Origin: Escherichia phage UGJNEcP3
Reading direction: 5' to 3' (one strand)
Sequence record: OV876907
DNA length: 64,000 nt
A program made the position numbers and the translations under genes. Shown piece by piece: positions 46,752 to 49,705 of this stretch; within the stretch, counting starts at the first letter, position 1; each line of letters starts with the position of its first letter. The notes under the pieces were generated by a model. That model did no database searches. It saw nothing but the letters and a program-made list of their open reading frames with translations, and had not been told where the DNA came from.

Positions 46752-47038
46752 TAGAACCTCATCTGAAATCCATGTGATTTAACATTACCACCGTAGATGT
46801 CAGAAGTATTGACTTCGCGGGCAGCGCTAGGGTCGATATTAATATCATGGTTGAGCTTAGTGATTGCTAGGGTGTCACGACCATTAACTGTACGGAATTC
46901 TACCGGACAAACCACATCAGCATAAGCCTTAATGGATTCGCGAGTAGGCTGTTTGTCAGCAGGAACATCTTTACCTGCCTTAGAGAAAACAACTTCACAG
47001 AAATTTTTACGAGTATCGAAATAAGTGGTCATAAACAT
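46751..47038 (-). CDS. hypothetical protein (30.x cluster)
   Basis: Start moved to ATG 47038 (MFMTTYFD) after GAGGAAAA; track ATG 47071 is inside a GC hairpin. Confidence 0.5.
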   Translation of the reverse strand: MFMTTYFDTRKNFCEVVFSKAGKDVPADKQPTRESIKAYADVVCPVEFRTVNGRDTLAITKLNHDINIDPSAAREVNTSDIYGGNVKSHGFQMRF

Positions 47039-47079
47039 AATATTTTCCTCAATGGAGGCCGAAGCCTCCATTTTTAAGA

Positions 47080-47445
47080 TTAGATATCAAATTCGTTAAG
47101 AACTACATCAAAGATTGCTTCCAGGTGTTCAGGTTTAGCACGGTTGCTCAGGATGTGACGAATCCAAGTTTTAACCAGAAGCTTACGATTATCGCCGTTC
47201 CAGCAAGGATGGGTACCTAAATCACGTTGACGGAAATCGTCATCTAAAGCGATTTTAAAAGTAGAACCTTCCATAGTGATTGAAACCGTAATACCATTTT
47301 CAAAGCGCATGTAAACGTAGTTAGGAGTCATGCACTGTTCGATTTCACACACTGTACCGTTTTCGTGTTTCCACAGGCAAATAACTTCGGAAGAACCAGC
47401 GATACCGTTAGAAACATATTTACGTTCGAAGTTGATGTAGTTCAT
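47080..47445 (-). CDS. hypothetical protein with duplicated promoter-leader (copy 1)
   Basis: ORF track; GGAGAA RBS; leader about 45 nt near-identical to that of the 47519-47851 gene. Confidence 0.6.
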   Translation of the reverse strand: MNYINFERKYVSNGIAGSSEVICLWKHENGTVCEIEQCMTPNYVYMRFENGITVSITMEGSTFKIALDDDFRQRDLGTHPCWNGDNRKLLVKTWIRHILSNRAKPEHLEAIFDVVLNEFDI

Positions 47446-47485
47446 TTTATTCTCCAGTTTGTTTTCGTATTATTTGGTACAGGTC

Positions 47486-47514
47486 TATAATAACACAACC
47501 TGTACCAAAGTAAA
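47486..47514 (-). promoter_or_regulatory. early-type promoter TTTACT-N17-TATTAT within duplicated leader (copy 1)
   Basis: Upstream of 47080-47445; 10-bp inverted repeat TTGGTACAGG / CCTGTACCAA flanks the -10. Confidence 0.45.
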
Positions 47515-47518
47515 ACAT

Positions 47519-47851
47519 TTATTTCACAACATTCCAATTTTTCATATCAAGTTTACCAACTTTTTTCATCTGAGCAATCAGACGTTCAGCACGTTTGCGG
47601 GCATTAACATAATAGAATTCACCAATTTCGTTTTCTTCAATACGGCCGGTAATTACAGTTTTCAGTTCATAAATCCAACCTGTAAAGAAGTTATGAAGCT
47701 CGATGGTAAAGGTGAAATCGGTACCCATACCTTCTGTTGTTTCAACTTCGATGATATCACCTTCAACTGCAGTCAGGACCCACATGGTTTCTTGATATTC
47801 ACCGTTGAAACATTTAGCTTTAACAGATGCATTCAGGTTTACAGTTTTCAT
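47519..47851 (-). CDS. hypothetical protein with duplicated promoter-leader (copy 2)
   Basis: ORF track; GGAGAA RBS; TGTACA-N16-TACTATAG promoter; shares an EG..T.F..I.L motif region with the neighbouring gene. Confidence 0.6.
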   Translation of the reverse strand: MKTVNLNASVKAKCFNGEYQETMWVLTAVEGDIIEVETTEGMGTDFTFTIELHNFFTGWIYELKTVITGRIEENEIGEFYYVNARKRAERLIAQMKKVGKLDMKNWNVVK

Positions 47852-47892
47852 TTTATTCTCCGGTTTGTTTTCGTATTATTTGGTACATGTCT

Positions 47893-47920
47893 ATAGTATC
47901 ATGCCTACCGGAGATGTACA
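47893..47920 (-). promoter_or_regulatory. early-type promoter TGTACA-N16-TACTATAG within duplicated leader (copy 2)
   Basis: Upstream of 47519-47851; downstream 45 nt near-identical to copy 1. Confidence 0.45.
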
Positions 47921-47949
47921 CCCTTTTTTTAAGATTTAGAAACAAAAAT

Positions 47950-47967
47950 GGGACTCCGAAGAGTCCC
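47950..47967 (-). terminator. intrinsic terminator after the small basic ORF (UUCG tetraloop)
   Basis: Minus strand GGGACTC-TTCG-GAGTCCC then ATTTTTGTT. Confidence 0.6.
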
Positions 47968-47972
47968 ATAAC

Positions 47973-48134
47973 TTATACAATCACTTTACCGAAGCAAGCA
48001 GCATCTGCACGCAATACTGCACGAGCACGAGCTTGAAGCTTATCAACTACCTGATTGATACGCTTGTTAGACGCACGCTTGTAACCAGCGCGTTTAGAGG
48101 TACCGTCAACTACTTTAACTTCTTTCTTAGCCAT
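47973..48134 (-). CDS. small basic protein (about 53 aa), hypothetical
   Basis: Below track cutoff; hand translation MAKKEVKVVDGTSKRAGYKRASNKRINQVVDKLQARARAVLRADAACFGKVIV; highly-expressed-style codons; UUCG terminator follows; coordinates approximate. Confidence 0.4.
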   Translation of the reverse strand: MAKKEVKVVDGTSKRAGYKRASNKRINQVVDKLQARARAVLRADAACFGKVIV

Positions 48135-48392
48135 TTTTAAATCTCTTAAATTAGGATGCAGGACTTATTGGCGTTGCCTGCGCAAGCCCTCAAGGGAACA
48201 TAGGTTTTGGATATTTAACGACAGGATAACCATAAACCTCGTCATCATACCAACCACGACTTAGACAGATAACCTTTTTCTGACGCGTGATAGTACAAAA
48301 TACATTCAAGAGGTACACCGTAAAACTGCCGGGGTCTTAAAACTATAATGATTCGCAAATCATTAATCAGACAGTTCGACGGCTCCTCGATT

Positions 48393-48641
48393 TTACTTCA
48401 GGGTAATAATAAAATGACGTACTGCTTTACGAGCTGCTGAAGCCAAAGGCTTAGCATATTTCAGTTCATCTTTTGCTTCCAGTTCAGCCGCCAGTGTGGC
48501 CTGTGCTGGGTTCAGATGTTTGAAATAACGCAGGATTTCCAGTGCTTCGGCTTCAACATCAATAGATGCGCCGTAGTTTTCATGACCGTTGTTCCAAGCG
48601 TTGCGTTGCAGTTCAAGAGCGTGATTCAGTTGTTTGTTCAT
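48393..48641 (-). CDS. rIII: lysis inhibition accessory protein RIII
   Basis: ORF track; 82 aa, matching T4 rIII in size and position between 31 and the 30.x cluster. Confidence 0.7.
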   Translation of the reverse strand: MNKQLNHALELQRNAWNNGHENYGASIDVEAEALEILRYFKHLNPAQATLAAELEAKDELKYAKPLASAARKAVRHFIITLK

Positions 48642-48779
48642 TTTAGTTTCTCAATTCGAGATAAAGATTGGTGGACACGTTCTTCTGAATTTCACTTCCT
48701 TTCGGCAAGTCTCTCAGTTGTAGTCCACCGCTTAGGATTCTCCGGTTAACTAACTAGTCCGGCAGCCAATCCATATTAT

Positions 48780-48787
48780 TATTTATA
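48780..48787 (-). promoter_or_regulatory. candidate late promoter TATAAATA (rIII, long leader)
   Basis: Reverse complement of TATAAATA abutting gp31 stop; about 139 nt upstream of rIII ATG. Confidence 0.3.
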
Positions 48788-49111
48788 TCACTTATAAAGA
48801 CACGGAATTGCCTTGTAGTGACAAGTAACGAATTTTTGTTTAATTTCTTTAGGTTGTTTAATACCCAATGCAACCAACGGATGAGGCACGTTAGCAATCT
48901 TACCAACAGGAAGTGGAGTCAAATCGCCTACTTCACAAAAATCTTCAGGGACATCAGGTCCTACAGAATAAATTTCACAAAGTTCAGGGATTTCACCTTG
49001 ATGAAGTTTGCCAATAACGATACCAGATGCAGTAGTTTCTTCATCACCAGCTTGTTTTGGTTCGGAAACGAGAATAACATATTCTCCGACCGCTTTAATA
49101 GGAAGTTCCAT
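48788..49111 (-). CDS. 31: co-chaperonin gp31 (GroES analogue)
   Basis: ORF track; collinear with T4 gp31 ([25 protein letters not shown]). Confidence 0.92.
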
Positions 49112-49169
49112 ATTTAATCCATATTGTTTTGTTGATAGATTAATAATAACACGCTATTCTTAAAGCATA

Positions 49170-49469
49170 TTACAGGACAAGCAGAGTTTCAGTCTGGAGC
49201 CCGTTAATAGAAATCAGTTTATCGAAACGGAACGAGCGCCAGTCATTAACCTTGGTATCAAATACACGAATATAATTAACCGGTTCTTTATTAGCTTCTG
49301 GGCCAGGTGCTTGAATTTCTTTATACGGGAGGAGGTCCAGGTCGCGAGTACAAGTCATACGACGAACGCTACCATCCGTCTTTTCAAACAGAACTTCGTG
49401 AAAGCCTACAGACAAGATAGTCTTGACTTTTTCACGGAGCCGAATAGTTTCTTGTTCAGTTAAAATCAT
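49170..49469 (-). CDS. hypothetical protein (31.x position)
   Basis: ORF track; ATG confirmed. Confidence 0.5.
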   Translation of the reverse strand: MILTEQETIRLREKVKTILSVGFHEVLFEKTDGSVRRMTCTRDLDLLPYKEIQAPGPEANKEPVNYIRVFDTKVNDWRSFRFDKLISINGLQTETLLVL

Positions 49470-49471
49470 AA

Positions 49472-49705
49472 TTATTCCAGGATAGTTTTAATAGTGGTTG
49501 CATTACGCTCTTTTAGAGCTCTTAATAGGCTATGGCAATTATCAAGAATAGGTACTGTTTTGTAATTCATGTTGGCATAAACCCACTCGGATTTATAGTA
49601 CGATTTCCATCGAGAGAAAAAGTACTTTTTGTATTCTACTGAATAGGCTACTAAGCTTTCACCTTTTGAGTTCAGACCTGAAAACTTAACTAGTCGAAAT
49701 TTCAT
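49472..49705 (-). CDS. hypothetical protein (31.x position)
   Basis: ORF track. Confidence 0.5.
   Translation of the reverse strand: MKFRLVKFSGLNSKGESLVAYSVEYKKYFFSRWKSYYKSEWVYANMNYKTVPILDNCHSLLRALKERNATTIKTILE

Follow-up and report, generated by a model that had tools for sequence, protein, structure and literature searches.

A modular non-coding spacer with conserved structured RNAs between rIII and gene 30.9 of a T-even-type coliphage

The 64,000-nucleotide sequence from Escherichia phage UGJNEcP3 (record OV876907), here called the window, belongs to a T-even-type coliphage. We analyzed its rIII-30.9 region, where a spacer containing conserved structured RNAs separates the gene for a lysis inhibition accessory protein (rIII) from a small conserved gene (30.9). 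The 801 bases around this finding are 100% identical to phage UGJNEcP4, 86% to RB69 and 72.5% to T4. All features of the locus lie on the minus strand. Read in that direction, they comprise the gp31 co-chaperonin gene (48788-49111), rIII (48393..48641; 82 aa), a 258-nt spacer (48135-48392) that extends from the rIII stop codon (48393) to the ATG of a 53-aa open reading frame (ORF), this ORF (47973..48134), and an intrinsic terminator (47938..47969). Identified from the ORF list and from its annotation in matching phage records, rIII shares 83% DNA identity with T4 rIII and is the upstream gene of the unit; 5 nt separate its stop codon from the first helix (P1) of a structured RNA that we term module A. 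The terminator, which a sequence-only reading of the window had already recognized as a clean UUCG terminator after the ORF, has a G+C-rich hairpin and U tract at 47969-47948 (nine pairs, five of them G-C, a UUCG loop, then TTTTTGTTTCT), stands at the end of the unit, and is the sole terminator-like site within 47000-49500. From rIII through the spacer and 30.9 to this terminator the locus is a single transcription unit, and the interval studied here (47973-48392) is its distal part.

The 53-aa ORF is the homologue of T4 gene 30.9, and is real, conserved, and already known. The sequence-only reading had quoted its translation exactly, and its frame is kept in relatives as expected of a protein gene; the proposal that it is unannotated does not hold, given that it is the ‘30.9’ of T4, RB69, and JS98 and that an identical protein is recorded for UGJNEcP4 (‘hypothetical protein UGJNECP4_00221’). 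The basic product belongs to PHROG 1427 (phrog_1427, E = 7.1e-26, residues 1-50 covered), and a Pfam search returned neither a family match nor a recognized RNA-binding domain. By tblastn, 30.9 was found in 999 phage records, every one named as T4-like, and its 41 protein clusters are all from T4-like phages of enterobacteria and all labeled ‘hypothetical’; the gene is conserved throughout enterobacterial T4-like phages. Records label it ‘gp30.9 conserved hypothetical protein’ (JS98, RB69, phiR1-RT) or ‘ORF 31.-2’ (an old T4 entry), and the names ‘1,4-alpha-glucan branching enzyme’ and ‘baseplate wedge component’ in some records are evidently misannotations.

The protein alignment of gp30.9 reveals a conserved core (G-[TD]-SKRAGYKR-x-SNKRINQ...RARAVLR...FGK) with the invariant columns SKRA-YKR-SN...AR-V...F, preceded by a lysine-rich, variable N-terminus; all indels are whole codons. 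In the AlphaFold2 model, which has low confidence (mean predicted local distance difference test score 69), the basic N-terminus is disordered and residues 28-48 form a single long helix. The position of the gene between rIII and 30.8/30.7-like genes, on the same strand, is kept in T4T, RB69, Merlin, F48, phiR1-RT, Melville, and PG7. The window and T4 share the order rIII, spacer, 30.9, terminator, 30.8-like gene, together with the orientation and the conserved motif, but differ in length, with 58 aa from the conserved ATG in T4 and 53 aa in the window. The T4T record (L001:2011-2229; L numbers denote loci in related phages) gives 30.9 as 72 aa, 14 codons longer, with a start inside the conserved non-coding leader. 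As this upstream extension is not conserved, the annotated T4T start is probably wrong.

Upstream of 30.9, the gap of about 260 nt noted in the sequence-only reading measures 258 nt and is non-coding RNA under strong purifying selection. Identity to T4 is 98.9% in module A and 95.5% in the 30.9 leader (48131-48249), compared with 83% in rIII, 79% in gp31, and 74% in 30.9. By these comparisons, the spacer is the most conserved stretch of its neighborhood, and conservation in relatives, which that reading had named as a check, is borne out at 95-99% identity to T4, above the flanking genes. Close relatives differ by single-base indels that break all reading frames in the leader, and module A contains a stop codon in every sense frame; the spacer is therefore non-coding. 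Gene-strand ORFs of 30-42 aa do occur at 48165-48257, 48190-48318, and 48245-48358, the motif GUAUGAUG at the start of the leader's conserved 5' part (L1) is conserved across genera, and several GenBank records annotate small ‘hypothetical proteins’ here. It is nevertheless extremely improbable that the spacer hides small protein genes, for example a 27-30-aa frame (MMTRFMVILSLNIQNLCSLEGLRRQRQ) from a conserved UAUGAUG. Indels of 1 nt between the window and T4 shift the frame twice within 60 nt and yield unrelated peptides, conservation tracks base pairing rather than codon position, and the annotated small ORFs vary from record to record. Apart from such inconsistent calls in some records, the rIII-30.9 gap (200-370 nt) is unannotated in the records examined.

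Module A (48298..48395) is a portable structured RNA defined by RNAalifold, covariation, and a covariance model. Twelve distinct copies from four phage families were aligned. Its helices span 48310-48388 and comprise P1 (GAGG/CCUC, 4 bp), P2 (GCCGU/ACGGU, 5 bp), P3 (GAACUGUC/GGCAGUUU, 8 bp), and P4 (UAAUGAUU/AAUCAUUA, 8 bp), a total of 25 pairs in the RNAalifold consensus. Eleven of these pairs carry compensatory double changes, the type of substitution expected of a structured RNA, compared with 3.0 +/- 1.4 in shuffled alignments (0/500 shuffles reach 11) and with at most two when the partner is moved by 1-3 columns. Standard pairs are formed in 98.7% of cells, versus 93.5% in shuffles. P4 with its UGCG loop (48346..48365), which the sequence-only reading had singled out as the inverted repeat AATGATT-(4 nt)-AATCATT, accounts for eight pairs, four with double changes, and 100% of its cells are paired. 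The internal loops are invariant (A versus GUA; UGAU versus UAGUUUUAAGACCCC), and so are the unpaired nucleotides GGAGC opposite GUGUACC (an A facing the GUA bulge), CUGAU-UA, and UAUAGUUUUA. Module A is thus an unbranched four-helix rod with invariant unpaired nucleotides.

The minimum free energy structure of the single sequence is this same fold, and its z-score is stronger for the gene strand (-3.04) than for the opposite one (-2.03). The better fold on the gene strand, together with several G-U pairs, indicates that module A is an RNA read in the direction of the genes. The covariance model has exactly one match in the window, at 48298-48395 (121 bits). None of 4227 Rfam 15 models matched module A, the leader, or the further element described below as module D, in either the window or seven related loci. 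At E<=10, Rfam returned only chance matches to microRNA and small nucleolar RNA models within 47000-49500 (11-20 bits, far below threshold, and outside the spacer), and permissive scans that extended to ten related loci likewise matched nothing in the spacer. The sequence-only reading had seen no tRNA-like element, and this is upheld: ARAGORN reported 0 in the window, and no Rfam tRNA-clan match occurs in 47000-49500 at E<=10. Module A therefore matches no described RNA family and is an undescribed RNA of ~90 bases. By eye, resemblances to hammerhead, hairpin-ribozyme, kink-turn, and boxA elements were considered and rejected, as key nucleotides misfit and Rfam gives no match.

Folding energy distinguishes module A from the rest of the spacer. 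The whole spacer folds no better than shuffles (z = -0.90), and only its first ~90 nt do so (z = -3.04). The structural argument hence rests on comparative data, that is on covariation rather than folding energy.

Comparison of the spacer in ten T4-like genera resolves it into separable blocks, A, C, D, L1, and L2, whose presence and order vary. In T4-like phages, module A lies directly after rIII and is restricted to phages of E. coli and Shigella. The slot between A and L1 may be empty (T4, phi92), hold module C (window, RB69, A150), or hold module D (145-155 nt in this slot), and L1 followed by L2 fills the remainder up to the 30.9 start codon. The order differs between E. coli phages and phages of Klebsiella or Aeromonas hosts; Klebsiella Jiaodavirus has rIII-X-L1-A0-D-L2 and Karamvirus PS49 has h1-D-L1-h2. 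Because blocks are present, absent, or reordered, they are independent units and not one folded leader. The sequence-only suggestion of a long structured leader or small RNA is thereby right about conserved RNA structure on the gene strand and wrong about a single unit, as the spacer is a mosaic of which only the promoter-distal ~115 nt behave as a 30.9 leader.

Module C (48250..48305), recognized by comparing this slot in relatives, is an optional insert of about 53-55 nt between A and the leader. It contains at most a weak hairpin (CACG..CAGA-loop-UCUG..CGUG), and its variation is too low for a covariation test. Three further elements of the spacer are absent from the window or were seen only in relatives. 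Module D is a 137-155-nt G+C-rich non-coding element that occupies the A-L1 slot, or lies between L1 and L2 in Klebsiella phages (L050:~505-645, L047, L014:~1016-1150, L016, L017, L075, L076). It occurs in 407 T4-like records from many host genera at 90-98% identity, and RNAalifold gives a multi-helix fold of 39 pairs, eight with compensatory changes; it is the second undescribed structured RNA of the locus. An element of ~35 nt, A0 (in T4 TTCACTGCCTTAGTGTGAGCTAAAT; L001:1809-1845, L053, L073, L014), is absent from the window; in some E. coli phages it stands before module A, and in Klebsiella phages before module D. A0 may resemble the type I-F CRISPR repeat GTTCACTGCCGTATAGGCAGCTAAGAAA, but the repeat hairpin is not conserved, and A0 matches no Rfam CRISPR-DR model at E<=5. 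Finally, a small hairpin followed by GUAAC is found at L014:~888-925, L016, and L073:~545-575; its UGUACG loop is conserved and its stem covaries (CCAUG/CAUGG in Klebsiella phages, CUUUG/CAAAG in Yersinia phiR1-RT). The string GUGUAC is common to this hairpin and the invariant bulge region of module A.

The leader begins with L1 (48199..48249), which was delimited by comparing T4-like genera and is present in every one examined. L1 consists of a stem S1 (GAC(G)AGG/CCUGUC), a second stem S2 ((AU)GGUU/AACC(U)AU), and an A-rich loop (CGUUAAAUAUCCAA). RNAalifold selects three core pairs of S1, which are paired in 13/13 sequences. Their pair types vary widely (UA:7 AU:5 GC:1 and CG:6 GC:5 UA:2), all 13 double-change cells are paired (100%), and the covariation is supported by shuffle and slide controls. 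For S2, the GGUU within the S1 loop can pair with AACC beyond the A-rich stretch, and replacement pairs are seen in Merlin and PG7 (GUGAG/CUCAC), PS49 (GUAGU/ACUAC), phiR1-RT (GGUGGU/ACCACC), and Melville (11 bp). L1 is likely to be an H-type pseudoknot in which the 5' strand of S2 lies inside the S1 loop, although S2 is not proven.

Three smaller elements connect L1 to 30.9. The hairpin h1 (CCCUUGAGGG then CUUG; 48187..48196) is nearly invariant in sequence across genera. It is followed by h2 (GCAGG-CAACGCCAAUAAGU-CCUGC; 48158..48181), which varies in length and sequence between genera and is not scored as a terminator, and by the 30.9 ribosome-binding region (48131..48157), with AAGAG ~9 nt upstream of the AUG. 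Most other genera have an equivalent UCUCC-N5-GGAAGA hairpin in L2, at the Shine-Dalgarno sequence. Judged from these sequences, the last leader hairpin possibly masks the Shine-Dalgarno sequence.

Outside T4-like phages, module A also occurs in three unrelated coliphage groups, namely Vequintavirinae W70/A73, Kuravirus, and Justusliebigvirus (phi92-like), and its orientation is always that of the surrounding genes. W70 and A73 carry module A alone (99 bits) in the leader of a tRNA operon, ~125 nt downstream of a sigma70-like promoter (10/12) and 15 nt upstream of an unannotated atypical tRNA that opens the tRNA cluster. In Kuravirus it is again found alone (74-82 bits), between a gene's stop codon and the intrinsic terminator that precedes TerL; in O18-011, module A and its terminator have moved together to another place. 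T4-like phages of Klebsiella, Cronobacter, and Citrobacter keep the leader and, by the covariance model, lack module A. The independent movement of module A among unrelated phage families is unlike the behavior of a gene-specific leader.

The atypical tRNA itself (L004:2606-2684 in W70; L007 in A73) scores 35.8 bits against the Rfam tRNA model and was missed by ARAGORN. Its acceptor is GCGCGGG/CCCGCGC and its anticodon stem-loop ACGGU-CUUCUAA-ACCGU (UCU, Arg); the T arm is normal, the variable region is long, and a normal D arm is lacking. Similar unannotated sequences were found by blastn in N4-like, FelixO1-like, phi92-like, and jumbo coliphages.

A host origin of module A was rejected on genome scans. 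There is no blastn match at E<=1 in 5,426 complete E. coli genomes, and 72,556 plasmid records yield one 31-nt chance match, to a Bacillus cereus plasmid (E = 0.9). In 185,579 bacterial species genomes there are 24 pattern matches, all of which fail the covariance model and look random. The four patterns used for IMG/VR gave 6, 8, 16, and 1 loci, and the real matches are T4-like, phi92-like, or Kuravirus-related. A metagenome scan gave 10 loci, eight of which match the model (T4-like contigs and one Kuravirus-like contig). Neither the IMG/VR nor the metagenome scan revealed a further module A lineage.

The phi92-like phages (phi92, muut, PD06, ‘Campylobacter’ A150, and others) carry module A together with the 30.9 leader, as a T-even segment inside their tRNA cluster, between tRNA-Gly and tRNA-Gln (L002:2470-2815 in phi92; likewise L003, L051, L056). 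The pair is present in 17/17 Justusliebigvirus records that cover the query region. Relative to T4 the block is circularly permuted: it starts immediately behind the rIII stop, continues across module A and the leader, and ends at the 30.9 ATG, which is joined in frame to the last 27 rIII codons (MEKDELKYAKPLASAARKAVRHFVVTLK) to give a 28-aa peptide. It is flanked by a 13-nt direct repeat (TTTATTGGAGATT), the last 7 bases of which (TGGAGAT) are the 5' acceptor strand of phi92 tRNA-Gln. From its sequence, the block looks as if a small circle, or the product of a tandem duplication, had integrated by microhomology. In the A150 group the block includes module C, and the peptide frame has lost 1 nt.

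An alternative explanation lies at the level of DNA, with the spacer as a target for recombination or homing, as a signal for packaging or replication, or just as a segment exchanged too recently to have diverged. The near-identity of distant T-even genera and phi92-like phages (99.7%) shows that exchange was very recent, the clean gain, loss, and reordering of modules is as at a recombination hot spot, and the Kuravirus copy adjoins the terminase gene. We consider this highly improbable as the cause of conservation. Compensatory changes maintain the helices in lineages only ~79-83% identical (W70, Kuravirus, and Mosigvirus variants). Read from the opposite strand, the G-U pairs would become A-C mismatches, and it is the gene strand that folds better. 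Module A is also missing from some Kuraviruses that have the same terminase, and its orientation relative to transcription is constant.

The explanation that best accounts for the locus, to which we assign a probability of roughly 50%, is an rIII-30.9 unit with a modular spacer that combines a leader operator and an autonomous module A. L1 and L2 would probably constitute a translational operator of 30.9. By analogy with the pseudoknot of the T4 gene 32 leader, the L1 pseudoknot may serve for protein binding or nucleation, with the basic gp30.9 itself as a possible ligand, while the last leader hairpin would mask the weak 30.9 Shine-Dalgarno sequence. Module A would stand outside this operator, probably as an RNA domain complete in itself and able to work in whatever transcript contains it. 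Most likely it would serve a protein of the infected E. coli cell as a binding site or decoy, and it may be released from the polycistronic transcript as a stable fragment, like the small stable RNAs of the T4 tRNA cluster. That the locus holds functional structured RNAs as well as gene 30.9 is highly probable; the specific mechanisms, a 30.9 operator and a binding site or decoy in module A, are tentative.

Several observations weigh against this explanation. Only 82.7% of S2 cells are counted as paired in the MAFFT columns, an outcome of register shifts in 4/13 sequences, and support for S2 rests partly on inspection. A longest-stem test of the pseudoknot against shuffles, albeit a naive one, was not significant in most sequences. 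Folding energy supports neither the leader (z = 0.15) nor module C (z = -0.08), and the window version of the UCUCC-N5-GGAAGA hairpin is weak. Among Kuraviruses, KBNP1711 keeps only P1 and P2, still before the terminator, so that the upper domain of module A is dispensable in at least one lineage, and in IMEP8 the site is occupied by an unrelated hairpin. With 99.7% identity to AR1/RB27-type Tequatroviruses, the phi92 block was transferred recently. Furthermore, its retention may reflect the RIII C-terminal peptide and not RNA: since the 28-aa peptide is placed under 30.9 translation signals, retention cannot be credited to RNA alone. The case for the autonomy of module A consequently rests on W70/A73 and Kuravirus.

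A related but more doubtful possibility is that the rIII-30.9 spacer of T4-like phages, like a tRNA cluster, is an array in which each small RNA gene (A, D, L1, and others) is independent, and in which A is horizontally mobile and trans-acting. It would bind or decoy an E. coli factor, for example a nuclease, a defense sensor, or a component of the translation or transcription machinery. A trans-acting module A in such an array would explain its capture by unrelated coliphages, in two lineages into tRNA operons.

The contexts of module A also bear on purely cis-acting roles. It is unlikely, for instance, that module A is solely a processing or stability signal without a trans function, that is a cleavage site of the RNase III or RNase E type, or a protective hairpin, by which the upstream message (rIII mRNA, the Kuravirus gene before TerL, or the tRNA precursor leader) is separated and stabilized. 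Its form would suit this role: asymmetric internal loops interrupt a long rod of ~17 bp plus 8 bp, and RNase III sites of T7 resemble such interrupted rods. So would its location directly behind stop codons in the window and Kuravirus and at transcript-segment boundaries in W70 and phi92, as well as the KBNP1711 lower stem, which alone still precedes a terminator. However, a generic nuclease site or protective hairpin needs less than unpaired nucleotides that are invariant across four phage families. Kuravirus already has a terminator hairpin ~25 nt downstream for protection of the 3' end, and the Klebsiella, Cronobacter, and Citrobacter T4-like phages dispense with module A at the same junction.

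Distinctly less credible is a processive antitermination RNA like HK022 put, in which the nascent module A would bind RNA polymerase in cis and cause it to read through terminators and highly structured tRNA genes that lie downstream. In every context module A is upstream of, and co-oriented with, terminators or tRNA arrays: the terminator before the essential TerL (Kuravirus), the tRNA operon of W70 (from its promoter-proximal leader), the tRNA operon of phi92 (from within), and the 30.9 terminator in T-even phages. Its portability would also fit phages that all use E. coli RNA polymerase. Yet module A is a single rod with one distal hairpin, whereas put has two stem-loops, and the two share no sequence similarity. 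The T-even copy is ~250 nt from the unit promoters, behind a whole gene. In Kuravirus, a promoter-like site overlaps the terminator, which means that TerL need not depend on read-through. Put-type organization is accordingly rejected, with a continuous P1-P2-P3 rod plus P4 and only the W70 copy promoter-proximal.

A riboswitch aptamer, through which a small molecule would control a downstream terminator or translation, is very unlikely. At ~90 nt with conserved internal-loop nucleotides between covarying helices, module A has a suitable size and shape; the Kuravirus copy is directly before an intrinsic terminator and a gene, and the 3' strand of its P1 (CCCUU) can pair alternatively with a downstream GAGGG. 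No mutually exclusive terminator and antiterminator can be drawn, however, as either pairing of P1 leaves the Kuravirus terminator free to form. In its four contexts module A is followed by unrelated elements (tRNA, terminator, module C/D, leader), a variable insert of 3 to 155 nt precedes anything controllable in T-even phages, and no Rfam riboswitch matches. With a different downstream partner in all four contexts and no exclusive expression platform, the riboswitch was rejected. An autonomous module A beside a 30.9 leader operator remains our preferred account of the spacer.

Two other features lie near the unit. The 146-nt gp31-rIII spacer (48642-48787; 82.5% identity to T4), a possible structured leader of rIII, has a late-promoter-like sequence (TATAAATA) upstream of rIII and a long-range complementary pair (GGUGGAC...GUCCACC). 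Downstream of the 30.9 terminator, a 55-nt direct repeat on the gene strand occurs in two 93% identical copies (47441-47495 and 47847-47901) that begin two successive genes (47519-47851; 47080-47445). Each copy contains a promoter-like site, a hairpin, an identical 5' untranslated region, and a start codon, and the repeat is a duplicated promoter/leader cassette. The weak Rfam ‘mir’ matches coincide with its hairpin.

Taken together, the locus holds at least three covariation-supported RNA structures without an Rfam family, namely module A, the L1 pseudoknot stem, and, in relatives, module D. These structured RNAs are new here, whereas the ORF was already known and the RNAs are of a familiar general kind, phage intergenic structured RNAs. 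Even T4, the most intensively studied virulent phage, has this conserved RNA in an unannotated gap. Module A is common to four phage families that share little else but their host, which points to a self-sufficient RNA function re-used by selection. If trans-acting, it would be a rare example of virulent phages exchanging a non-coding RNA and could open a route to a new host interaction; should it act in cis, it would offer a small, portable device for processing RNA or controlling transcription in E. coli. In addition, the analysis corrects the likely start codon of T4 30.9 and offers the hypothesis that 30.9 is autoregulated through a leader pseudoknot.

Known phage systems provide several points of comparison. 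The core sequence of module A was not found printed in the literature searched, which also held nothing relevant on T4 small RNAs of this region; the expression of rIII and 30.9 is the subject of Driukas & Nivinskas 2003 (Biologija), which PMC9409239 cites. The HK022 put RNA, ~70 nt long, folds into two stem-loops arranged as a V and includes a short triplex (PMC9378689). Module A is similar in its position upstream of terminators, its portability among phages that use E. coli RNA polymerase and, as proposed here, its independence of a dedicated phage protein; it differs in forming one rod with a distal hairpin in place of a V with a triplex, and has no sequence in common with put. The T4 species 1 and 2 RNAs (rnaC, rnaD) are likewise phage-encoded structured RNAs, ~120-140 nt long and co-transcribed in the tRNA cluster. 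A tRNA cluster contains module A in W70 and phi92 too, whereas the T-even copy lies outside the cluster. Homology to rnaC/rnaD was rejected: a forced alignment is poor and the covariance model has no match in the T4 tRNA region (L005, which includes rnaC, rnaD, and the T4 tRNAs). Also comparable are the orphan phage RNA motifs of Rfam, which, like module A, are defined only by conservation and covariation in intergenic regions.

For the leader, a parallel is the pseudoknot in the T4 gene 32 mRNA leader, an autoregulatory translational operator. It has no sequence similarity to L1, as compared by Rfam scan only, and S2 of L1 is partly supported. The two nevertheless share, as far as the likely pseudoknot of L1 goes, an H-type fold, and they share a place in the 5' leader of a gene for a small protein of the nucleic-acid-binding type (for 30.9, predicted only). 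Like the gene 32 pseudoknot, L1 is located tens of nt upstream of the ribosome-binding site and is conserved among T-even phages.

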